A stretch of DNA of 64,000 nt, taken from the NCBI GenBank assembly GCA_037131245.1, contig JBAXRK010000006.1:52295-116294 (forward strand), read 5' to 3'. Made by a program: the position numbers and the translations under genes. The DNA is from Candidatus Omnitrophota bacterium (GTDB taxonomy: Bacteria > Omnitrophota > Gorgyraeia > Zapsychrales > Fredricksoniimonadaceae). The notes under the pieces were generated by a model. It saw nothing but the letters and a program-made list of their open reading frames with translations, was not told where the DNA came from and searched no databases. How positions within the stretch are numbered: the first letter of the stretch is position 1; every line of letters begins with the position of its first letter. This document shows positions 1 through 34,635 of this stretch, piece by piece.

Positions 1-786
1 CTGTTTACAGTCTTGTTCTTAGCGGTCCTCACCGGACCGGCCAGAGCCCAGCTCTTCGTGGAGGAGGGTAAGGTGGTTCTGTCCGTTTCCGGTGGGGATC
101 GTATCAGCAAGACGATCACGGTCGATAACAATTCCAAAGATGAAATGGATATCAGGGTTTACTGGGAGGATTTTCAATACCAGGCACCCTATGATGGTTC
201 GAAAAAGTTCCTTCCGGCCGGTACCGGTATGGGATCCGCCAGTGGGTGGATCCAGTATATGCCGCAAGAATTCAAGATCCCTCCTTCCGGAAAACAAAAG
301 ATCGACTATACTATTAATGTTCCGGCTCAAGTCGAGGGCGGGCATTACGGTGTGCTTTTCTTCGAGAAGTCTACAGGCGCGGCGACTGATGTTACAGGGG
401 TCAGGATCGTGACGCGCATTGGTTGCCTTTTTTTCATTGAGGCGAAGAACAAGGCCAAGAAGGCGCAGGTTGGAGACATCGCGGTGGCGGGTGGCGATCT
501 TACCGGGACATTAACGAACGCCGGTGATGTGGTGCTGATCCCGAGGATCACCTATTATGTGATGGATGAGTCGGGGATGGTCGCGGATCGCGGCGAGCTG
601 GGCAGGCTTTATATTCCGCCGGGTGAGTCGGCTCCGTGGAAGTTGCCGCTGCCCAAGGAACTGGCGGCGGGCCGTTATAGCTTGATGGTGAACGCTGATC
701 TTGAAGAGGGGGACATTGCGGTCAAGGATATTACCCTACAGAAGTCTTCTTCCGGAGAATTCACTGTTGAGAAAGTGCAGGATTAG
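1..786 (+). CDS. Secreted two-domain beta-sandwich protein, PapD-like periplasmic chaperone candidate (5' end cut by window edge)
   Basis: The frame is open from nt 1 (LFTVLFLAVLTGPARA|QLF is the tail of a signal peptide), with the stop at 784-786. The sequence is all-beta in character and falls into two ~110-aa halves (ITVDNNSKDEMDIRVYWEDF...GGHYGVLFFE / LTNAGDVVLIPRITYYVMD...GRYSLMVNADL), as in Ig-like pilus chaperones. The family assignment is not verified. Confidence 0.5.
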   Translation: MFTVLFLAVLTGPARAQLFVEEGKVVLSVSGGDRISKTITVDNNSKDEMDIRVYWEDFQYQAPYDGSKKFLPAGTGMGSASGWIQYMPQEFKIPPSGKQKIDYTINVPAQVEGGHYGVLFFEKSTGAATDVTGVRIVTRIGCLFFIEAKNKAKKAQVGDIAVAGGDLTGTLTNAGDVVLIPRITYYVMDESGMVADRGELGRLYIPPGESAPWKLPLPKELAAGRYSLMVNADLEEGDIAVKDITLQKSSSGEFTVEKVQD

Positions 787-799
787 GGCTGCCCGCGGT

Positions 800-3568
800 A
801 TGATCCTGCAACGCGTGCTTTTGTTAGTGGCATTCTTTCCCCTCGTTTTATCCTGCGGTGTGGCGCGTGCCGGGGACAATTCCCTTACTTACGATTATTA
901 TTTGAACGAAGGCATCGCGGCGTTTAAGGCTCATCGCGATCAGGTTGCGCTGGATTATTTTAACCGGGCCCATTTTCTTTCACCTGCCGCGGAAGAACCT
1001 CTCGAATATATCAACCTTCTAAAACGGGTTTATGACGGCCGCCTGGAAGATCTTTCCGGTCGCCCTGTTGAAAAGGACCGGGCCCGGGTCATCAGTGACG
1101 CGCTCGACCATTTCGGGGAGGCGGATGTTGCGCCGCAGCCCGGAACAATAAAGCCGGCTCCGGTTGCGGTTGCGGCCAAGCCGGTCAAGAGGCTTGACCG
1201 GGTTACGATCGACGATATTCTTGGCGCCAATCCTGCTAAACCATCCATTCGCCTTGATACCGGGTCCTCGGTTGTTATCGAGGGCAAGGATATCCTGCGT
1301 TTTCTGGTCGTTGATCCTGGATTCTTTACGGTCAAAGCGGAGGGGCGAGATCAGATCAGGGTAGAAGGCTTAAAATGGGGAAGTTCTTTTCTTCATGTAT
1401 GGGATCAGCGTGGCCGTACCACTCTTTATGTGGAGGTCTTTCTGCCGCATGCTTATGAAACACCTGAGGCTCCACAAACAGCCGCTATTGTTGAGCATGC
1501 GCCGCCGTTTCGGATGAGGTACACGCTCGATAACGGGTCTTTTTATTCCGGCCGGGATATGACCCATCTTCGCCGGGGAAGTTCGACCATTCAGGAATCG
1601 GTAGCGATCGACGGCGAAACGCCCTATGGCGCTCTGGACGCTTCTCTTTCGGCCACCGGTTTTGATCCTATTGTTGAAATCCCTACGTACACGCTTGGCC
1701 TCAGCCATATTCCGTTGAAGGGCACCGACGATCTCAACGCGCGGGTTTTTGACGGTTACCGTAGCCTGTCGCCGCTCACCTTGCCCGGCGCGCGTTTGCG
1801 CGGCGAGTTTGTCGACGTGAGGGCCTTTGAGAACATGGTCGGGGTATCGTTGTCTCATGGAGGGTACTTGCCATCGATCAGCTCGCTTTCGCCGGGGCTT
1901 ACCACCACCAGGGACTCTTTTATTGACGCGGTCTCGGTGTCGCTTTTCCCGGTGAGCACGCAGCATCGCTACACGTTGAATTATGCCACCGGCTACGGCA
2001 CCGAGCGCGAACCATATTTGACCCGTAAGGTTTATTCTTTACAGGGAGAGCAGAAGGCGGGGCCTTTTGACCTGAATGCCGAGTTGGCCCGTGATGACCG
2101 TACAACAGCGTCGTTGGCGGGCATCAAGTGGGCGAACGGGTTGGTGCATCAGGGGGTGAATTTTCGCAATATTAACAAGGAGTTCACGACCATTACCGCT
2201 TCGCCCTCGAATCAGGGCGAGATCGGGGCCACCTGGACGACGAACACCAGTACGGATAAATTTTCGGCGGGATCTTTTGTTGACGTGTATCAGGATCGTC
2301 TTTATCCCAATGCTGACGATCCGCAGGCGCTCAACTACGATACGAATGCTCATATCGCCATTCCGTTGGGGCAGTATAGCTGGGATACGTCCGGGCGTTA
2401 TGTCACGACGCCGGGTCAGGCATCCCCCAGGACGTATGCCGGCGTTGATACGCGGCTTTCCCGGGGCTTCCCGGTGTGGGGCGGACGCCGGGGAACGGGG
2501 TATATCGGCGCCAGCGATCAGCTTAGCCGTTTTGAATTCTCGCCGGCTTCTGAGTATGATCGCAATGGGGTGACGGCAGGCGTGCAGGTTCCGTTGACCC
2601 GGTCTATTTCGGGCTTTGCTAATTATGAATATTCCTGGCTTTATGAGAAGCTCACCTCCGACACCTTTCATCCGGCGGTCATGAATGCCGGACTGGCCTA
2701 TAATGCCAATCTGACGGAGAACCTGGTGACGAATCTCGGGTTGACCTATCGCAATGAACTTAATGTTAAGGGTGCCAATAGTTTTCTGGCCGGAGAAGAC
2801 AGCGTCGCCGCCTCGGCCGGACTGACTTATACACCGAAAAAAGATGTAACCTTGTTTTGTGACTCCCGGATGAGAAGCGTCTGGTCGCAGGTTCCCGATG
2901 GTCCTTCTTATAACGACCTGGACCTGCGTTTCGGCATGCGCATGGCTTGGGGGCTGGGCCTGGCTTTTGATCCCCAGGGTACCGTTGCCGGTTTCGTTTT
3001 TAAGGATCGGGACGGGAATAAAGAATTTACGCCTGATATCGGGGGAGTGGCCGGCGATGAAGGGTTGCCGGGGATTAAGGTCAGGATCGGCGATCAGGTT
3101 GCCGTCACGGATGCCCGTGGCTGGTTCTCAATGCCGGTTCGCGCGAGACGGGCTTTGGTTGCCCCGGTCATGGAAAGCCTGCCTCAGGGGTTTGTTTTTT
3201 CAACAGCGGCTTTTGCCAAGGTGGATATTACCCAGGGGCGTACAAAGCGTGTTGATTTCGGTTTGACCACGCAGTCAGGGATCTACGGGGTCGCTTTCGT
3301 GGATGTGAATGGCAATGGCCTGCCTGACCAGAATGACCATTTTATTGCCGGCGTTAAAGTTTTGATGGATGGTAAAGCGGCCCAAGCCACGGATTCCCGC
3401 GGGGCTTATTTTTTCAAGAACGTGATGGATGGGAAACATACGCTTACGATCGATATGAGCGCTTTACCGGCTGGTTATATCCCTCTGGTGAAAGTTAAAA
3501 GTGAGGTGGACGTGGCTGAGGGCACGACCTACATCTTCCATATTCCTCTGAAATACAATCCTAAATGA
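800..3568 (+). CDS. Large outer-membrane protein: signal peptide, TPR-like helix pair, pilus-formation N-terminal (CpaC/RcpA-N-like) domain, long beta-barrel-like region, two C-terminal CarboxypepD_reg/SdrD-B-like Ig domains
   Basis: ATG at 800 gives MILQRVLLLVAFFPLVLSCGVARA|GDN (signal peptide). SIRLDTGSSVVIEGKDILRFLVVDPGFFTVKAEGRDQIRVEGLKWGSSFLHVWDQRGRTTLYVEV matches the secretin-N/pilus_N pattern. A Y/F/G-rich region of alternating strands follows. The C-terminus has GIYGVAFVDVNGNGLPDQNDHFIAGVKVLMDG..TDSRGAYFFKNV..GKHTLTID (Cna-B/SdrD-B-like). The 701 start in the ORF track overlaps the upstream gene and lacks a signal peptide. Confidence 0.65.
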   Translation: MILQRVLLLVAFFPLVLSCGVARAGDNSLTYDYYLNEGIAAFKAHRDQVALDYFNRAHFLSPAAEEPLEYINLLKRVYDGRLEDLSGRPVEKDRARVISDALDHFGEADVAPQPGTIKPAPVAVAAKPVKRLDRVTIDDILGANPAKPSIRLDTGSSVVIEGKDILRFLVVDPGFFTVKAEGRDQIRVEGLKWGSSFLHVWDQRGRTTLYVEVFLPHAYETPEAPQTAAIVEHAPPFRMRYTLDNGSFYSGRDMTHLRRGSSTIQESVAIDGETPYGALDASLSATGFDPIVEIPTYTLGLSHIPLKGTDDLNARVFDGYRSLSPLTLPGARLRGEFVDVRAFENMVGVSLSHGGYLPSISSLSPGLTTTRDSFIDAVSVSLFPVSTQHRYTLNYATGYGTEREPYLTRKVYSLQGEQKAGPFDLNAELARDDRTTASLAGIKWANGLVHQGVNFRNINKEFTTITASPSNQGEIGATWTTNTSTDKFSAGSFVDVYQDRLYPNADDPQALNYDTNAHIAIPLGQYSWDTSGRYVTTPGQASPRTYAGVDTRLSRGFPVWGGRRGTGYIGASDQLSRFEFSPASEYDRNGVTAGVQVPLTRSISGFANYEYSWLYEKLTSDTFHPAVMNAGLAYNANLTENLVTNLGLTYRNELNVKGANSFLAGEDSVAASAGLTYTPKKDVTLFCDSRMRSVWSQVPDGPSYNDLDLRFGMRMAWGLGLAFDPQGTVAGFVFKDRDGNKEFTPDIGGVAGDEGLPGIKVRIGDQVAVTDARGWFSMPVRARRALVAPVMESLPQGFVFSTAAFAKVDITQGRTKRVDFGLTTQSGIYGVAFVDVNGNGLPDQNDHFIAGVKVLMDGKAAQATDSRGAYFFKNVMDGKHTLTIDMSALPAGYIPLVKVKSEVDVAEGTTYIFHIPLKYNPK

Positions 3569-3823
3569 TCAAAGTGCCACGATCGTCCTGACCGTGACGG
3601 TCTCCTGCCCGCGGACGATCTGCTGTTCCTGAACCATCTGTGTTGCTTTCGTGGTGGCAAAAGCCAAAGAAGGGGCGCTCGGCGCCTGCAGGGCGTCGCT
3701 GCTCATTTGGACCATGACCGGGATAGTGACGGATAAATTAAAAGAGGCGGATTCGGCGCTGGCAAAGTTTGCCTGAGCCGTGAAGGCCAGGGATAAGATC
3801 GTGGTTAAGATTACCTTTTTCAT
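3569..3823 (-). CDS. Small secreted protein (84 aa; about 61 aa mature), function unknown; possible fibre/pilin-like subunit
   Basis: ATG at 3823 is preceded by GGAGAA 5 nt upstream. MKKVILTTILSLAFTAQANFASA|ESASF is a clear signal peptide. The longer 126-aa ORF-track version has no RBS and would read through the leader structures. Confidence 0.6.
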   Translation of the reverse strand: MKKVILTTILSLAFTAQANFASAESASFNLSVTIPVMVQMSSDALQAPSAPSLAFATTKATQMVQEQQIVRGQETVTVRTIVAL

Positions 3824-3863
3824 ATCGTTCTCCTTTGTTAGGGGAAACGACCTGAAAAAGAAG

Positions 3864-3896
3864 GACACAAAAAGTCCCAAGGCTAACAGGCTTGGG
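3864..3896 (-). terminator. Intrinsic-terminator-like hairpin plus U-tract forming the expression platform of the upstream riboswitch candidate
   Basis: The minus strand reads CCCAAG-CCUGUUAGC-CUUGGG followed by ACUUUUUGUGUCCUUCUUUUUC. It lies directly 3' of the aptamer and 40 nt before the RBS of the 84-aa gene. The stem is only 6 bp. Confidence 0.4.
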
Positions 3897-3995
3897 GCTC
3901 CGGCAACCAGACAACCATACCCTCCAACACTAGGAGAGATTAGGCTCACGGCTTTGCGTCCTACCTTTTCAGATAGTTTGCCATTAAATTCAATT
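3897..3995 (-). promoter_or_regulatory. c-di-GMP-I (GEMM-I) riboswitch candidate
   Basis: The minus strand reads AAUGGCAAACUAUCUGAAAAGGUAGGACGCAAAGCCGUGAGCCUAAUCUCUCCUAGUGUUGGAGGGUAUGGUUGUCUGGUUGCCGGAGCC. It shares, in the same order as the V. cholerae Vc2 aptamer: GGCAAAC; a GAAA-capped hairpin (CUAUCU/AGGUAG); GGACGCAAAGCC (an 11-12-nt identity); the CCUAA bulge; a second hairpin (CUCUCC/GGAGGG); and GGUUnCCG. Confidence 0.6.
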
Positions 3996-4157
3996 CACAA
4001 AGAGCAATTACCAAACCCATTGACAAGTATAGCACGGGAGTGTAGGCTTTGCCATGTAAGGGAAAAAATAAGCATTGATTTTGTTTTAACGCAAGTTATT
4101 GTGTGGCAACATCTTACACTCATATTGTTTGGTTTTTGGCGATTATATTAGACAATC

Positions 4158-5522
4158 ATGATCTATGAGCGCTCTCTTTTTGTGTTTCGCCGTGATTTTC
4201 GGCTGGAGGATAACACCGCCCTGATCAAGGCGATGGGCGTATCTCGCTGCGTTATTGTGGCCTTTATTTTTGATCCGCGTCAATCTCTTCCTCCCCAATT
4301 GGGGCATCCTCACGGGTATTTCAGTGTGAAAGCGGCGTCTTTCCTGCGTCAATCGCTTGATGACTTGACCGGAGTCGTTGAGGCAAGGGGCGGGCGCCTT
4401 TTCCGTTTTTACGGGCCGTGCGATAAAGTTGTCACGGATCTTATTTCCCGTGAAAGGATTGACGCTGTCTTTGTGAACAAGGACCATACGCCTTTTAGTA
4501 TCCGGCGGGATTCAACGCTTCGTGTGGTCTGCCAGCAACACGGCGTAGCTTTTGACGAAAGCGAGGATGTTTTGCTTTGTCCTGCGGGAAGCGTCCTAAA
4601 GTCCGTCGCGGGGACGGGAGGCCCTTATACGGTCTTCACTTCATTTTATAAGAAGGCGTTGACGCTGGGAACCTTGCCGGTCCAGGGGAATTCTTTTGAT
4701 AATTTTTTCAAAGGGGATCTCGAGAGCAATTATTTTTTGAAGGCCGGTGAGTTACCGGACCTTCATGAGGTGTCTCTTCTAAAGGGCGGACGTGCTGCCG
4801 CGCTTGATATTCTTAGTGGTCTTGATCGATGCCGCGATTATGCCGCGCAGAGGGATATCCCCGCTTTGGGCGCGACCACGCATTTGTCGCCATATTTGAA
4901 GTTTGGCACTGTCTCTGTCAGGGAGGTACGGCAGGCCGTTGCCCAGACGCTGGGGCCGGAGCATCCGATCCTCCGGCAGCTCTATTGGCGGGACTTTTTC
5001 AGTCATATTGTTTATCATTTTCCGCATGTCTTCGGCAGTGCTTTTTATGACGAATATAATTCGATCCTTTGGCAGAATGATGAGTTGCTCTTTGCCGCGT
5101 GGTGTGAGGGGCGTACGGGCTTTCCTTTGGTCGACGCCGGGATGAGGGAGCTTAACGCCACTGGATTCATGCATAACAGGGTCAGGATGGTGGCCGCGTC
5201 ATTTTTGGTCAAGGACCTGCACATCGACTGGCGCTGGGGGGAGAAATACTTCGCCGGAAAGCTGGTAGATTACGATCCGTCGGTGAATAACGGGAATTGG
5301 CAGTGGGCGGCTTCCACCGGCTGCGACCATCAGCCGTATTTCCGAATTTTTAATCCTGTCCTGCAACAGAAGCGCTTTGACCCTTCTTTCATCTATGTCA
5401 GGCGATGGGTGCCGGAGTTTGGAACGAAAGAATATCCAACGCCCGTTATTGACCACACCGTCGCTGCGGCCTGGGCCAAAGAGGCCTTCCGCAACGCCTC
5501 CCGACGCAAAAAAAATGTGTAA
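4158..5522 (+). CDS. phrB: Deoxyribodipyrimidine photolyase / cryptochrome family (class I CPD-type)
   Basis: The N-terminus is RSLFVFRRDFRLEDNTAL. The FAD-binding C-terminal half has YWRDFF, TGFPLVDAGMRELNATGFMHNRVRMVAASFLVKDL, DYDPSVNNGNWQWAASTG and YFRIFNP, all hallmark photolyase motifs. Confidence 0.92.
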   Translation: MIYERSLFVFRRDFRLEDNTALIKAMGVSRCVIVAFIFDPRQSLPPQLGHPHGYFSVKAASFLRQSLDDLTGVVEARGGRLFRFYGPCDKVVTDLISRERIDAVFVNKDHTPFSIRRDSTLRVVCQQHGVAFDESEDVLLCPAGSVLKSVAGTGGPYTVFTSFYKKALTLGTLPVQGNSFDNFFKGDLESNYFLKAGELPDLHEVSLLKGGRAAALDILSGLDRCRDYAAQRDIPALGATTHLSPYLKFGTVSVREVRQAVAQTLGPEHPILRQLYWRDFFSHIVYHFPHVFGSAFYDEYNSILWQNDELLFAAWCEGRTGFPLVDAGMRELNATGFMHNRVRMVAASFLVKDLHIDWRWGEKYFAGKLVDYDPSVNNGNWQWAASTGCDHQPYFRIFNPVLQQKRFDPSFIYVRRWVPEFGTKEYPTPVIDHTVAAAWAKEAFRNASRRKKNV

Positions 5523-5528
5523 ACCGGC

Positions 5529-5556
5529 TTGACAGCTTTTTGTTTAGGAATACTAT
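5529..5556 (+). promoter_or_regulatory. Sigma70-type promoter of the nrd operon (TTGACA-16 nt-TACTAT)
   Basis: TTGACA lies at 5529-5534 and TACTAT at 5551-5556. The -10 element lies inside NrdR box 1. Confidence 0.55.
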
Positions 5557-5597
5557 ATGTAGTGTCTTACCGGTCAACAGCCACCAATAGGTAGTTT
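5550..5597 (+). promoter_or_regulatory. Tandem NrdR boxes (one strong, one degenerate)
   Basis: Box 1 (5550-5565, ATACTATATGTAGTGT) matches the published NrdR-box consensus acaCwAtATaTwGtgt at 14/16 positions. Box 2 (5582-5597, CACCAATAGGTAGTTT) matches at about 10/16. The 32-bp start-to-start spacing is typical of tandem NrdR boxes. The site lies upstream of nrdD/nrdG. Confidence 0.6.
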
Positions 5598-5653
5598 TTC
5601 GACTGGATTCTTCGATCAAGGGGTTTTGTTCATCTGTTACCGTGGGCGTTTTG

Positions 5654-6445
5654 ATGGCTGTTCCTCGCTTTAAGCATATTTATGGCCCCGTTCATTCCTG
5701 GCGGATGGGAATGTCTTTAGGGATCGACCCTCTTGCGACCGATATAAAGTATTGTAATTTCGGCTGCCCGTACTGCCAATTGGGCATCGCGAAAGAATAC
5801 GGGACCGAGCGCCGGGTTTTTCTTTCTCCTGCTGAGTTAACGGCGGAGATCAATGCTTTACCACCGGATTGCCGCATCGATTATCTGACGTTCTCCGGTA
5901 ACGGCGAGCCGACATTGGCGGCAAATCTGGGAGAGCTCATCAGGGCCGCGAAAGCAGCCCGGCCTAACAAGGTCGCCGTGATCACTAATGCCACGCTGGT
6001 GACCCGTCAGGATGTGCAGGCTGATCTGGCGTTGGCCGACCTGGTGCTCTTGAAGATCGACGCGGCGGATGAGGCTGCTTTTCAGAAGGTCAACCTTCCC
6101 GCTCCGGGGATCACCCTGGCCGGGATCGTGAGTGGTATTAAACAGTTCCGCAAGGTGTATAAAGGCAAGCTGGCCCTTCAGATGATGTTCGTTGGGCACA
6201 ATAAGGCCCAGGCGCAAGGAATGGCGGATATCGCCCGGGATATAGCGCCGGATGAGGTGCAGCTTAATACGCCGCTTCGGCCGAGCCCGGTGAAAGCGCT
6301 CAGCGAAGCGGAAATGGTTGAAGTAAAAAAACCTTTTATCGCGGCCGGCTTGAAGGTTGTTTCGGTTTATGAGGAAGAAAAGAAAGAATACACACCATTT
6401 GACGCCGAGGCCACGGTCAAGCGTCATGGCCGTTACAAAAAATGA
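5654..6445 (+). CDS. Radical SAM protein (COG0731/Tyw1-like small radical-SAM family), first gene of the nrd operon
   Basis: The CxxxCxxC cluster is CNFGCPYCQ. The N-terminal YGPVHSWRMGMSLGIDP motif is typical of this small radical-SAM family. ATG 5654 is preferred over GTG 5642. Confidence 0.75.
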   Translation: MAVPRFKHIYGPVHSWRMGMSLGIDPLATDIKYCNFGCPYCQLGIAKEYGTERRVFLSPAELTAEINALPPDCRIDYLTFSGNGEPTLAANLGELIRAAKAARPNKVAVITNATLVTRQDVQADLALADLVLLKIDAADEAAFQKVNLPAPGITLAGIVSGIKQFRKVYKGKLALQMMFVGHNKAQAQGMADIARDIAPDEVQLNTPLRPSPVKALSEAEMVEVKKPFIAAGLKVVSVYEEEKKEYTPFDAEATVKRHGRYKK

Positions 6446-6480
6446 TTTGTTTTAATCCTTAAACGCACAGGGGGTGAGCA

Positions 6481-8610
6481 GTGTACGCGACGGAGATTTT
6501 CACCAAGATCGTAAAGCGTAACGGGGCAGAGGTCGATTTTGACGCGGCTAAGATCACCAAGGCGCTTCTTAAGGCCGGACAGGTTACGGGAGAATTCGGC
6601 GAGGATGCCGCCCAGAAGCTGACCATCCGGGTCTTGAACCTTGCTTTGCAGGTGTACAGCAAGCGCTTGCCCACCGTTGAAGGGATCCAGGATATTGTGG
6701 AAGAGGTCTTGCTGACGTCCCCCTACAAGCAGACCGCCAAGGCTTATGTGATCTACCGTGACCAGCGCTCCCGTTCGCGCGAGATCACCTCCATGTTCAA
6801 TGTCGACCTGGTCGATAAGTATCTTGCCCGCCGCGACTGGAAGGTTAAAGAGAATTCCAATATGGCCTACTCGCTTCAGGGCCTTAATCATTACATATCG
6901 TCGGAGATTTCGCAGGCTTACTGGCTTAATAAGGTTTATCCCGGAGAGATCCGCGATGCCCATGCCAATGGGGATCAGCATATCCACGACCTGGGGAGTA
7001 TCAGTGTTTACTGCGTGGGTTGGGATCTGTACGATCTTCTTCTCCAGGGCTTCCAGGGGGCTTCTGGTAAGGCGGAATCGCGCCCGGCCAAGCATTTCCG
7101 CTCGGCGCTGGGCCAGGTGGTCAATTTCTTTTATACGCTTCAGGGTGAGGCGGCCGGCGCGCAGGCTTTTTCGAATTTTGATACGTTGTTGGCTCCGTTT
7201 ATCCAGTATGACGGCCTTTCCTATAAGGAAGTCCGCCAGGCTTTGCAGGAATTTCTGTTCAACGTTAATGTTCCGACCCGCGTCGGTTTCCAGACCCCGT
7301 TCACGAATGTCACCATGGATGTCCGTGTCCCGACTTATTATAAAGACAAAGGGGTTATTGTCGGCGGTGAGGTTCAGGAAAAGACCTACAGTGAGTTTCA
7401 GAAGGAAATGGATATGTTCAACAAGGCGTTCCTGGAGGTTATGCTCGAGGGCGATGCCAAGGGGCGGGTGTTCACGTTCCCGATCCCGACCTATAACATC
7501 ACCAAGGATTTTGACTGGGACAATCCCGAGCTCAAGCCCTTGTGGGACATGGCGGGGAAGTACGGTATCCCGTATTTCACGAATTATATCAATTCCGATA
7601 TGAGCCCCGATGATGCCCGCAGCATGTGTTGCCGTCTGCGTATCGATAACCGCCAGCTTAACGCGCGTGGCGGCGGGCTGTTCGGCGCGGCGCCGCTTAC
7701 GGGTTCTATCGGTGTTGTGACCATCAATATGCCGCGGTTGGGTTATGCTTGCAAGAATGAAGAGACCTTCTTTGCCGCTCTGGAGCATCAGATGATCCTG
7801 GCCAAGGAAAGCCTGGAGATCAAGCGCAAGATCCTCGAAAAGTTCACCGACGACAATCTTTACCCCTATATGAAGTTTTATTTGCGCACCATGCGTTCCC
7901 GCTTCGGCCAGTACTGGAAGAATCATTTCTCGACCATCGGCCTGGTGGGGATGAACGAATGTTGCATGAACTTCTTGGGTGAGAATATTTCCACGCCTAA
8001 GGGAAAGAAGTTCGCGGAAGACACGTTGGATTTCATGCGCAAGGTCCTTATCAAGTTCCAGGAGGAGACCGGCAGTAATTATAACCTGGAGGCCACCCCG
8101 GCGGAGGGCGTGACCTACCGCCTGGCGCGCATGGACAAGGAAATGTATCCGGACCTCAAGCGTGATTGCCCGCAGGAAGCCGCCGGTGGCGAGCCGTTCT
8201 ATTCCAACTCGACACATTTGCCGGTGCATTTTACGGATGATATCTTTGAGCTTTTCGATCATCAAGATTCCCTGCAGGCCAAGTACACGGGGGGGACCGT
8301 CATCCATGTATTCGTCGGAGAGCGGATCGAGAACACCGACGCGGTCAAGCAGTTCGTCCGGACCGTTTGCGAAAAGTATTCGTTGCCGTATTTTACAATA
8401 TCGCCGACGTTCAGTGTCTGCCCGGCTTGCGGATACATTGCCGGTGAGCATCAGAACTGCCCGACTTGCGCGAGCGAGACCGAGGTTTATTCGCGGATCG
8501 TCGGGTATTTGCGCCCGGTCAGCCAGTGGAACAATGGAAAAAAAGCCGAGTTCCTCCAGAGAAAGACGTATAGCGTATGCTCCTCGGGGGCCTGCTCAAG
8601 TTCACACTGA
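6481..8610 (+). CDS. nrdD: Anaerobic (class III) ribonucleoside-triphosphate reductase
   Basis: It has an N-terminal ATP-cone (IVKRNGAEVDFDAAKITKAL), the catalytic core (NSDMSPDDARSMCCRLR), a C-terminal Zn ribbon (CPACGYIAGEHQNCPTC) and the glycyl-radical motif (SRIVGYLRP). The start is GTG, preceded by GGGGGTGA. Confidence 0.95.
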   Translation: MYATEIFTKIVKRNGAEVDFDAAKITKALLKAGQVTGEFGEDAAQKLTIRVLNLALQVYSKRLPTVEGIQDIVEEVLLTSPYKQTAKAYVIYRDQRSRSREITSMFNVDLVDKYLARRDWKVKENSNMAYSLQGLNHYISSEISQAYWLNKVYPGEIRDAHANGDQHIHDLGSISVYCVGWDLYDLLLQGFQGASGKAESRPAKHFRSALGQVVNFFYTLQGEAAGAQAFSNFDTLLAPFIQYDGLSYKEVRQALQEFLFNVNVPTRVGFQTPFTNVTMDVRVPTYYKDKGVIVGGEVQEKTYSEFQKEMDMFNKAFLEVMLEGDAKGRVFTFPIPTYNITKDFDWDNPELKPLWDMAGKYGIPYFTNYINSDMSPDDARSMCCRLRIDNRQLNARGGGLFGAAPLTGSIGVVTINMPRLGYACKNEETFFAALEHQMILAKESLEIKRKILEKFTDDNLYPYMKFYLRTMRSRFGQYWKNHFSTIGLVGMNECCMNFLGENISTPKGKKFAEDTLDFMRKVLIKFQEETGSNYNLEATPAEGVTYRLARMDKEMYPDLKRDCPQEAAGGEPFYSNSTHLPVHFTDDIFELFDHQDSLQAKYTGGTVIHVFVGERIENTDAVKQFVRTVCEKYSLPYFTISPTFSVCPACGYIAGEHQNCPTCASETEVYSRIVGYLRPVSQWNNGKKAEFLQRKTYSVCSSGACSSSH

Positions 8611-9248
8611 TCGATTATCCGGGAAGGATCGCGGCGGTCATTTTCACCCAGGGGTGTAATTACCGCTGCCCTTTCTGCCATAACCCGGAACTGGTATTGC
8701 CCGACCTCTTTCACGCTCCTTTGGACGTGGAAGAGGTCTTTTCTTTTTTAGAAAAAAGGCGCGGTCAGTTGCAGGGTGTTGTGGTTACCGGCGGGGAGCC
8801 AACCGTTCATGCGGATCTGCCGCAATTCCTGGCCAGGATCAAAGACCTGGCGTATTTGGTCAAGCTTGATACGAATGGTTCTCGTCCCGAGGTTGTCAAG
8901 GCCCTGGTCGCGGCTGGAGTCGTTGATTACTGGGCGATGGACATAAAATCCTCCTTGGAAAACTATTGTAATGCGGCCGGTGTCCCTGCCGACATAGAGA
9001 AGGTAAAAGAGTCTATCGCGGCGATCAGAGGTTCGGGTGTCGCGTATGAGTTTCGTACGACGGCCGTCAAAGGGCTTGTTTCAGCCCAGGATGTCAGGGC
9101 GATCCGCGGCCTCATTGGGGCCGACACGAACTATCACGTGCGCCGGGGGAATCTGAAGTCGAAGCTCCTTGAGGCGGGGTTGGCAGACCGGTCGGATTTC
9201 TCATCCGAGGAGTGGGAACAAATTAAAATCAACGGAGGGATTAAATGA
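8577..9248 (+). CDS. nrdG: Anaerobic RNR activating radical-SAM enzyme
   Basis: LIDYPGRIAAVIFTQGCNYRCPFCHNPE is the classic NrdG/PflA-type motif. The gene overlaps the nrdD 3' end by 34 nt. Confidence 0.9.
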   Translation: MLLGGLLKFTLIDYPGRIAAVIFTQGCNYRCPFCHNPELVLPDLFHAPLDVEEVFSFLEKRRGQLQGVVVTGGEPTVHADLPQFLARIKDLAYLVKLDTNGSRPEVVKALVAAGVVDYWAMDIKSSLENYCNAAGVPADIEKVKESIAAIRGSGVAYEFRTTAVKGLVSAQDVRAIRGLIGADTNYHVRRGNLKSKLLEAGLADRSDFSSEEWEQIKINGGIK

Positions 9249-34287: not shown

Positions 34288-34635
34288 ATGTCCTATCCAG
34301 CCGATTTTAATAATCTACGCCGTGATTCACGCGTCAATACCGAGCTTCCTGCCCGCATCAGTATCGGGTCGCAGTTGACGCTTAACGGGCACCTGAAGGA
34401 CCTTTCTTTAAAAAGCGCGTTCATCCGGATCAAGAACAGTGTTTATATGCAGCTTAATGACGAGGTCGGTTTCGCGATCCAGATAGCTCCGGGTAAGACC
34501 GAAGAGGTTATTGAGGGCGCGGCCCGCATTTCCCGTATTGCCGTCGGGGAAGGTTTGGCGATCTATTTCACCAAAATGGAAGAGACTTCGTTAAAACGCC
34601 TGAAGGATCTTCTTAAAGAGACCGGGATCTATTAA
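34288..34635 (+). CDS. PilZ-domain protein (single domain)
   Basis: RRDSR is the RxxxR motif and DLSLKSAF is D-x-S-x-x-G-like, with the Gly replaced by Ser. The protein has a beta-barrel-like length of 115 aa. Confidence 0.55.

Follow-up and report, generated by a model that had tools for sequence, protein, structure and literature searches.

The closest described relatives of the element discussed here, a class-I cyclic di-GMP (c-di-GMP; GEMM-I) riboswitch on the minus strand of a 64-kilobase (kb) stretch of Candidatus Omnitrophota DNA (contig JBAXRK010000006.1, positions 52,295 to 116,294; hereafter the window), are Vc2 of Vibrio cholerae, located upstream of tfoY, and Cd1 of the Clostridioides difficile flagellar operon. 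Vc2 acts as an OFF switch through ligand-dependent masking of the ribosome-binding site, and it binds c-di-GMP more tightly than Cd1 does. Among the GEMM-I riboswitches, Vc2 has been described as translational and acting through its P1 helix, and Cd1 as a transcriptional OFF switch that has no P1 helix and binds c-di-GMP with a dissociation constant (Kd) of 0.25 uM (PMC9262584). In Vc2 the G-alpha of the ligand is read by G20 and the G-beta is paired with C92, while the aptamers of the GEMM-Ib class, which recognise 3',3'-cyclic GMP-AMP (cGAMP), carry an A at position 20 (PMC6140456). The GEMM-Ib riboswitches (for example Geobacter Gs1761 and pilM) share the fold and the Rfam clan with the window aptamer. 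The same clan also holds the c-di-GMP-I-GGC variant (RF03167), the consensus of which reads GACGCGAA, with a G for A47.

The riboswitch of the window is located in the leader of a gene for a predicted secreted protein of 84 amino acids (aa; 3569-3823, minus strand), and probably acts on that gene as a translational OFF switch, as suggested by folding models and by the comparison of related leaders. With Vc2 it shares the RF01051 aptamer and the G20, A47 and C92 contact nucleotides, and it differs in host phylum, in regulated gene and in the way of switching: Vc2 switches via P1, whereas in the family of the window no conserved P1 is detectable and a downstream strand is predicted to target the first hairpin (P1a) and the adjoining junction. 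The GEMM-I aptamer, the lack of a P1 helix and the OFF polarity (modelled in case of the window) are shared with Cd1, but Cd1 terminates transcription, whereas the family of the window has not conserved the features of a terminator, and its expression platform overlaps the Shine-Dalgarno (SD) sequence and the start codon. As the riboswitch class is well known, the aptamer itself adds little; it is an ordinary member of this class attached to an uncharacterised gene family. What the locus contributes is a comparatively supported GEMM-I platform that would switch via P1a and the junction, and not via P1 or a terminator. No paper in the literature library searched ties Omnitrophota to a specific riboswitch.

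The whole window was scanned for RNA families with cmscan against all 4227 families of Rfam. The sole match was RF01051 (c-di-GMP-I) at 3992-3899 (minus strand), which scored 71.2 bits (E = 5.7e-12; gathering score 35) and covered the model at full length (1-87). A GEMM-I aptamer had been proposed in the original prediction, made from the letters of the window, and the Rfam search that it called for came out clearly in its favour. All of the motifs that it listed were also found at their place on the minus strand, from GGCAAAC, the GAAA hairpin, CCUAA, the second hairpin and GGUUGCC to CCCAAG...CUUGGG, the SD sequence and the ATG. GGCAAAC is located at 3982-3976 and GACGCAAAGCC at 3960-3950, followed by CCUAA and the second hairpin, and GGUUGCC at 3908-3902. 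The two-hairpin architecture aligns to the structure of the model, with P1a (CUAUCU-GAAA-AGGUAG, 3961-3976, closed by a GNRA tetraloop) followed by CCUAAUCUCUCC...GGAGGG, which contains the CUAA receptor-like bulge. The first G of GGCAAAC (G3982) falls on model position 11, where the model has a conserved unpaired G immediately before a GC pair, and is equivalent to G20 of Vc2; the A at 3955, the first A of GACGC-AAAGCC, is equivalent to A47, and the C92 equivalent is one of the two cytosines of the GCC that forms the 3' end of the aptamer (3902-3904; consensus UgCC). These equivalents depend on a partly assumed correspondence between the Vc2 numbering and the Rfam columns.

By every membership feature tested the element is a genuine class-I c-di-GMP aptamer and, judged by sequence, one of the standard c-di-GMP type, which keeps the G20, A47 and C92 equivalents. 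Two neighbouring classes were considered and ruled out for the window. The GEMM-Ib cGAMP class has A at the position-20 equivalent, whereas the nucleotide at 3982 is G, as it is in all 30 related leaders (GGCAAAC), and the c-di-GMP-I-GGC variant does not fit since the window keeps GACGCAAA and not GACGCGAA, with RF01051 as its best clan match. According to covariance model searches, orthologous aptamers scoring 67-84 bits are present in 12 related loci, and a GEMM-I clan aptamer (62.7-84 bits) was found upstream of the other family members wherever the upstream sequence sufficed.

A metagenome scan with the DNA pattern of the aptamer 5' half enlarged the set of related leaders to 30 distinct ones, which precede members of the same small-protein family (loci carry L numbers below); the leader alignment, A2, was made with MAFFT. 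Wherever the source of a related locus names an organism, it is Omnitrophota. In A2 the P1a pairs 11-18 and 12-17 covary, and across 29 leaders compensatory changes were found in both hairpins, in P1a and in the distal pairs of P2. When RNAalifold was applied to A2, columns 1-3 were paired with columns 82-84, so that the invariant GGC with the G20 equivalent was joined to the GCC, likewise invariant, of the 3' end. This pairing differs from the Rfam structure line; it may be an alternative fold of the unliganded RNA or an artefact of the invariance of these columns.

Downstream of the aptamer a C/U-rich strand, CUUUUUGUGUCCUUCUUUUUCAGG(UCGUUUC) (3844-3874, minus strand), is predicted to act as anti-aptamer or sequestor strand by forming a duplex with aptamer positions 3979-3951. 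Its equivalent is conserved in the 30 related leaders, all of them upstream of the same small-protein family. The targeted segment runs from the end of the P1a 5' arm through the GAAA loop and 3' arm and includes the GGACGCAAAG junction. For the window the energy of this duplex was -30.6 kcal/mol (z = -5.3), a value that none of the 200 dinucleotide shuffles used as null equalled, and the mean z over the 30 leaders was -3.8. The helix spans aptamer positions 9-30 in 29 of the 30 leaders, and each of the four variable positions shows U-A/C-G and A-U/G-C exchanges. In A2, 93.4% of its cells were paired, compared to 34-67% in controls for which the partner was slid along the alignment, and 17 cells showed double changes; the covariation score was reached by one in 500 shuffles. 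The leader of L003 provides an example, as its P1a is altered (CUGCUC...GAGUAGGGC) and its platform is changed to match (GCCCUCUUUUGAGCAG).

The same strand is able to pair with either of two sites because the coding start of the small gene, AUGAAAAAGGUA (3823-3812), closely resembles the P1a loop and 3' arm, CUGAAAAGGUA (3972-3961). The SD sequence GGAG is located at 3833-3830 and the ATG at 3823 (minus strand), and the functional platform reaches to about 3814; the interval originally marked for the element (3864-3995) thus covers the aptamer but cuts through the platform. Over the 30 leaders the duplex of the platform strand with the SD region had a mean energy of -20.1 kcal/mol (z = -3.1) and overlapped the anti-aptamer segment by a mean of 17 nucleotides (nt). 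In this case 79.3% of the cells were paired, compared to 55-69% in the slid controls, and two of 500 shuffles reached the same percentage. Two alternative partners are open to the strand, the aptamer and the initiation region; both pairings are better than their shuffled and slid controls and share nucleotides. In most clades the C/U-rich strand pairs the SD sequence and the AUG directly, for instance AUUUCGUCCUCUUU with AAGGAGGGCGAAAU. In the window, a local hairpin (GUCGUUU.CC...GG.AGAACGAU, 3824-3851, minus strand; -7.7 kcal/mol) encloses the SD sequence and forms in both modelled states; judged by eye, it covaries in L013 (GUCGUC/GGCGAC). In the ligand-bound state an extended helix between UCUUUUUCA (3861-3853) and UGAAAAAGG (3822-3814, comprising the start codon and codons 2-3) is predicted to stack on this hairpin, giving a structure at 3814-3861 of -18.0 kcal/mol.

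Taken as a translational OFF switch, the riboswitch would work as follows. Without c-di-GMP, the strand would use the single-stranded junction, the part that ligand binding occupies, as a toehold, invade P1a and make a helix of about 30 nt, so that the aptamer would be destroyed, the start codon open and translation ON. With c-di-GMP, the junction and P1a would be locked in the folded aptamer and the strand released; UCUUUUUCA would then pair the start and first codons (UGAAAAAGG), the SD hairpin would be strengthened from -7.7 to -18 kcal/mol and translation would be OFF. In most relatives the strand would pair the SD sequence and the AUG directly, and, as transcription reaches the strand earlier than the SD sequence, the decision would have to fall during transcription.

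Folding models are consistent with this polarity. When the aptamer of the window was locked, the unpaired probability fell from 0.89 to 0.34 for the AUG and from 0.74 to 0.23 for codons 2-4, and in 27 of the 30 leaders the free state had the more open initiation region, mostly by little. For transcripts ending before the SD sequence, the predictions had P1a disrupted in 19 of 29 leaders, with a median locking cost of 10.5 kcal/mol. In full-length transcripts the strand moves to the SD sequence, which leaves P1a intact in the predictions for 22 of 29. In the clade of the window the anti-aptamer fold is still favoured at full length, with a locking cost of 7.4-7.7 kcal/mol in the window itself. 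The Kd of Cd1 corresponds to about -9 kcal/mol, and a thermodynamic switch is plausible in this clade since the locking cost is within the range of c-di-GMP binding energies.

Several observations weigh against an OFF switch of this kind. In the window the SD sequence is about equally paired in both states (0.28 vs 0.25), and only the start and early codons change. In most relatives the SD sequence is sequestered at equilibrium with or without the aptamer constraint, and as its equilibrium access barely changes in most leaders, a kinetic trap would be needed there. When the full 5' untranslated region (UTR) was included, the minimum free energy (MFE) fold of the window kept the aptamer and formed a different long-range helix, and the consensus that RNAalifold returned for A2 was confined to the aptamer helices and did not include the platform. 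The signal of covariation in the swap test was weak (+1.3 kcal/mol on average, with 60% of the swaps worse). Moreover, the covariation tests are limited by the DNA pattern used for the metagenome scan: because it held most aptamer positions fixed, five positions alone were free to vary. Finally, nearest-neighbour folding, on which the polarity as well as the level of control depends, takes no account of tertiary contacts or ligand energy.

The original prediction favoured another platform, of the terminator type, in which a hairpin between the aptamer and the gene (hairpin 1; CCCAAG-CCUGUUAGC-CUUGGG, 3876-3896, minus strand), together with the U-run ACUUUUUGUGU on its 3' side, would act as an intrinsic terminator and form in a c-di-GMP-dependent manner. 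The stem has 6 base pairs, is G+C-rich (-7.4 kcal/mol for the core, -10.5 kcal/mol when extended to 3901-3871) and is followed two bases later by U5; a U-run is present at the same place in L001 and L013, and transcriptional GEMM-I switches such as Cd1 do exist (PMC9262584). However, the comparison of the leaders separates the two components of this terminator. A hairpin is kept at the position of hairpin 1 in nearly all leaders, with different stem sequences and covarying stems, but at least five U within the 9 nt following it were found in only 7 of the 30 leaders, and L007 and L008, the closest relatives, have no U-run. A consensus terminator scan of the window did not call hairpin 1, the loop of which has 9 nt. 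Furthermore, hairpin 1 shares no nucleotides with the aptamer and coexists in the folding models with the aptamer fold and the anti-aptamer fold alike; no conserved competitor of the hairpin was found in the leaders, the sole competitor being specific to the window and not significant. As there is neither overlap with the aptamer nor a conserved alternative partner, hairpin 1 would form whatever the ligand state and could not be regulated by the ligand. The U-run of the window is better explained as the 5' end of the anti-aptamer strand, where it would pair with the invariant GCAAAG of the junction, a pairing that already accounts for its presence. Regulated termination is therefore unlikely, and the hairpin at 3896-3876 is most likely a spacer. 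The case illustrates that a hairpin with a U-run can mislead when used as evidence for a terminator. Hairpin 1 would also have to act as a terminator in a P1-dependent ON switch restricted to this genome, in which the ligand would stabilise a helix formed by the 5' UTR with the aptamer tail and thereby block it. The strands of such a helix, GGGUUUGG...GCUCU (about 4018-4001) and GGAGC-CCAAGCCU (3901-3888; the aptamer tail and the 5' arm of hairpin 1), are paired in the MFE fold of the window with the full 5' UTR (-16.7 kcal/mol), and Vc2 is said to switch by P1 stabilisation (PMC9262584). Nevertheless, 15 of 200 shuffles equalled the window duplex. The helix is missing in the closest relative, L001 (-6.7 kcal/mol, z = +0.9), z averaged +0.2 over 28 leaders, and a distance of 16 nt separates the 5' strand from the junction. 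Being neither conserved nor significant against shuffles, the P1-like helix was rejected as a feature of the family, and an ON switch based on it in this genome is very unlikely.

A translational switch of the opposite polarity, with the anti-aptamer fold as the repressed state and the ligand somehow opening the initiation region, draws on the local SD hairpin, which persists in the ligand-free model of the window, so that this state is not fully open. It is difficult to reconcile with the strand released by aptamer formation being complementary to the SD sequence or the start codon in every clade; none of the structures obtained showed the locked aptamer raising access, and the opposite was seen in 27 of the 30 leaders, which makes ON polarity improbable. 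A coupling at the RNA level was considered as well. The small gene faces, tail to tail, a gene for a 955-aa outer-membrane-like protein (701-3568, plus strand), and riboswitch-dependent translation of the small open reading frame (ORF) might shield the transcript from Rho or degradation, allow an antisense run into the 3' end of the 955-aa gene and let c-di-GMP tune the large gene; antisense-acting riboswitches have reportedly been discussed. The stop codons of the two genes abut at 3568/3569, and the scan detected no terminator-like site between the stops or, on the minus strand, in the 270 nt that follow the small gene, so that the convergent transcripts must overlap. The tail-to-tail arrangement, noticed from the beginning, is also kept elsewhere: of 31 loci in which the sequence extends for 300 nt or more past the small gene, 28 have a convergent homologue of the large gene (about 950-1,020 aa), mostly 2-97 nt from the stop of the small gene. 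Against this coupling, the small protein is under clear purifying selection, as seen from its conserved motifs, and its ORF is for that reason not merely a leader ORF; in L016, moreover, two genes lie between the pair. We regard it as quite unlikely. The terminator, reversed-polarity and antisense/Rho models each have little or no comparative support, and the translational OFF switch acting through P1a and the junction remains the preferred reading.

Upstream of the aptamer a putative sigma-70-type promoter is located at 4026-4055 (minus strand), with a -35 box ATGGCA (4055-4050) and an extended -10 element TGCTATACT (4034-4026), 9 of 12 consensus matches and a TG before the -10 box. A TGGCAA...TGnTATAnT pattern recurs upstream of the aptamer in most related leaders, and the transcription start of the window is inferred. 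Between the promoter and the aptamer lies an invariant GYUCUUU element (GCUCUUU in the window, 3999-4005, minus strand), present in 29 of the 30 leaders. Its distance downstream of the -10 box is 19-22 nt in nearly all leaders (33 nt in L037; unresolved in L101), and its distance to the aptamer varies from 12 to 16 nt, with 45 nt in L119/L126. The constant spacing from the -10 box suggests a promoter-proximal or 5'-end element; a consistent RNA pairing partner for it was sought in the related leaders and none was found.

The presence of the aptamer in the leader of an 84-aa signal-peptide gene, as had been predicted, agrees with the ORF listing, and the N-terminus of the product (ORF 3823-3569) is signal-peptide-like. 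An identical protein, annotated as hypothetical, occurs in a metagenome-assembled genome of Candidatus Omnitrophota. The 84-aa protein had no match in Pfam or NCBIfam, and a word-index protein search retrieved only the protein itself. An exhaustive HMMER search of 1.84 billion representatives identified eight family representatives at 50% identity, and a profile search 29 family clusters at 90% identity, all annotated as "hypothetical". Members of the family have a signal peptide and an F-x-LSVT-x-P motif, followed by a variable middle, and end with a C-terminal QxVQEQ..R....V.RSIV motif. The AlphaFold2 model of the small protein is of low confidence (predicted local distance difference test, pLDDT, 66; predicted template modelling score, pTM, 0.27) and shows a signal helix and a C-terminal beta-hairpin, with a disordered stretch between them. 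In a large subfamily (L030, L032, L037, L039, L104, L106, L109, L114 and others) a cysteine follows the signal (..PAYCG..) and the protein ends in SIVVP; members of this subfamily may be lipoproteins, unlike the protein of the window.

The convergent 955-aa protein matches the Pfam families T2SS-T3SS_pil_N (PF13629; 26.4 bits, cut-off 23) and SdrD_B (30.8 bits, cut-off 29.7), and nothing was found for it in PDB or NCBIfam. With this protein as probe, a GEMM-I aptamer with a small-family ORF in the same convergent position was found in two of six Omnitrophota genomes. The large gene is preceded by a gene for a 257-aa protein (13-786, plus strand), called chaperone-like in the original prediction, for which the only matches were a weak Fn3-like one (E = 0.026) and one to BasC, a bindosome assembly protein, far below threshold (25 vs 260 bits); a gene of about 266 aa occupies the same position in L007 and L015. 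It is conceivable, although doubtful, that the convergent pair forms a c-di-GMP-controlled surface module, in which the secreted beta-hairpin protein, made at low c-di-GMP only, would partner, plug or be exported by the adjacent outer-membrane-like protein with its pilus/secretin-type N-domain. The riboswitch transcript might also act antisense on the large gene, as might be allowed by genes that lie face to face with no room for terminators. Such a module would so far be labelled Omnitrophota only, where the source names the organism. Apart from this reading, the locus ties c-di-GMP signalling in this uncultivated phylum to an otherwise unannotated gene pair, for a small secreted and a very large outer-membrane-like protein, and provides a testable handle on its surface biology.

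Elsewhere in the window, a 115-aa ORF (34288-34635, plus strand) already noted as PilZ-like encodes a stand-alone PilZ domain (PF07238; 30.2 bits, cut-off 22.5), which by sequence confirms that this genome encodes c-di-GMP receptor proteins. The P1a pattern of the window is shared by other aptamers located in front of usual GEMM-I targets, namely FN3-like secreted, flagellar rod and PilZ proteins. The genes upstream of the riboswitch promoter (4158-9248), which include a photolyase, a radical-SAM (S-adenosylmethionine) protein and the anaerobic ribonucleotide reductase NrdD with its activase, are partly syntenic in L001, L009, L010 and L016, suggesting a stable chromosomal neighbourhood rather than a mobile element.

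The set of 30 leaders may be useful for studying the evolution of expression platforms, as it contains an aptamer with an insertion, P2 stems without receptor and, at one related locus, an orthologue without riboswitch. In L003 (2640-2340, minus strand) the GEMM-I-like aptamer reads GGUAAAC...GAGUAGG, followed by a two-hairpin insertion of about 50 nt and GACAAAGCC...GGUUGCC. It scores below the Rfam gathering score and the equivalents of G45-C46 are seemingly missing; the co-varied anti-aptamer/anti-SD strand is kept, and the leader could be a decayed riboswitch or a structural variant. In L004 (9060-9400, minus strand) a more distant gene of the small-protein family, convergent with a large gene, stands behind another ORF and has no aptamer, so that the riboswitch is not universal in the family. 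The aptamers of one lineage, L017 (1194-1285), L018, L019 and L072, scored best on RF03167 (62.7 bits, gathering score 59). For L017-L019 a GGC-variant reading was rejected on the alignment, where A47 is kept (GACGCAAA); the better RF03167 score of these leaders and L072 is due to a P2 without the CUAA receptor segment and not to the base change that defines the variant. A P2 of this kind is also found in L016, L070 and L119/L126, and could cause misannotation as the GGC variant.

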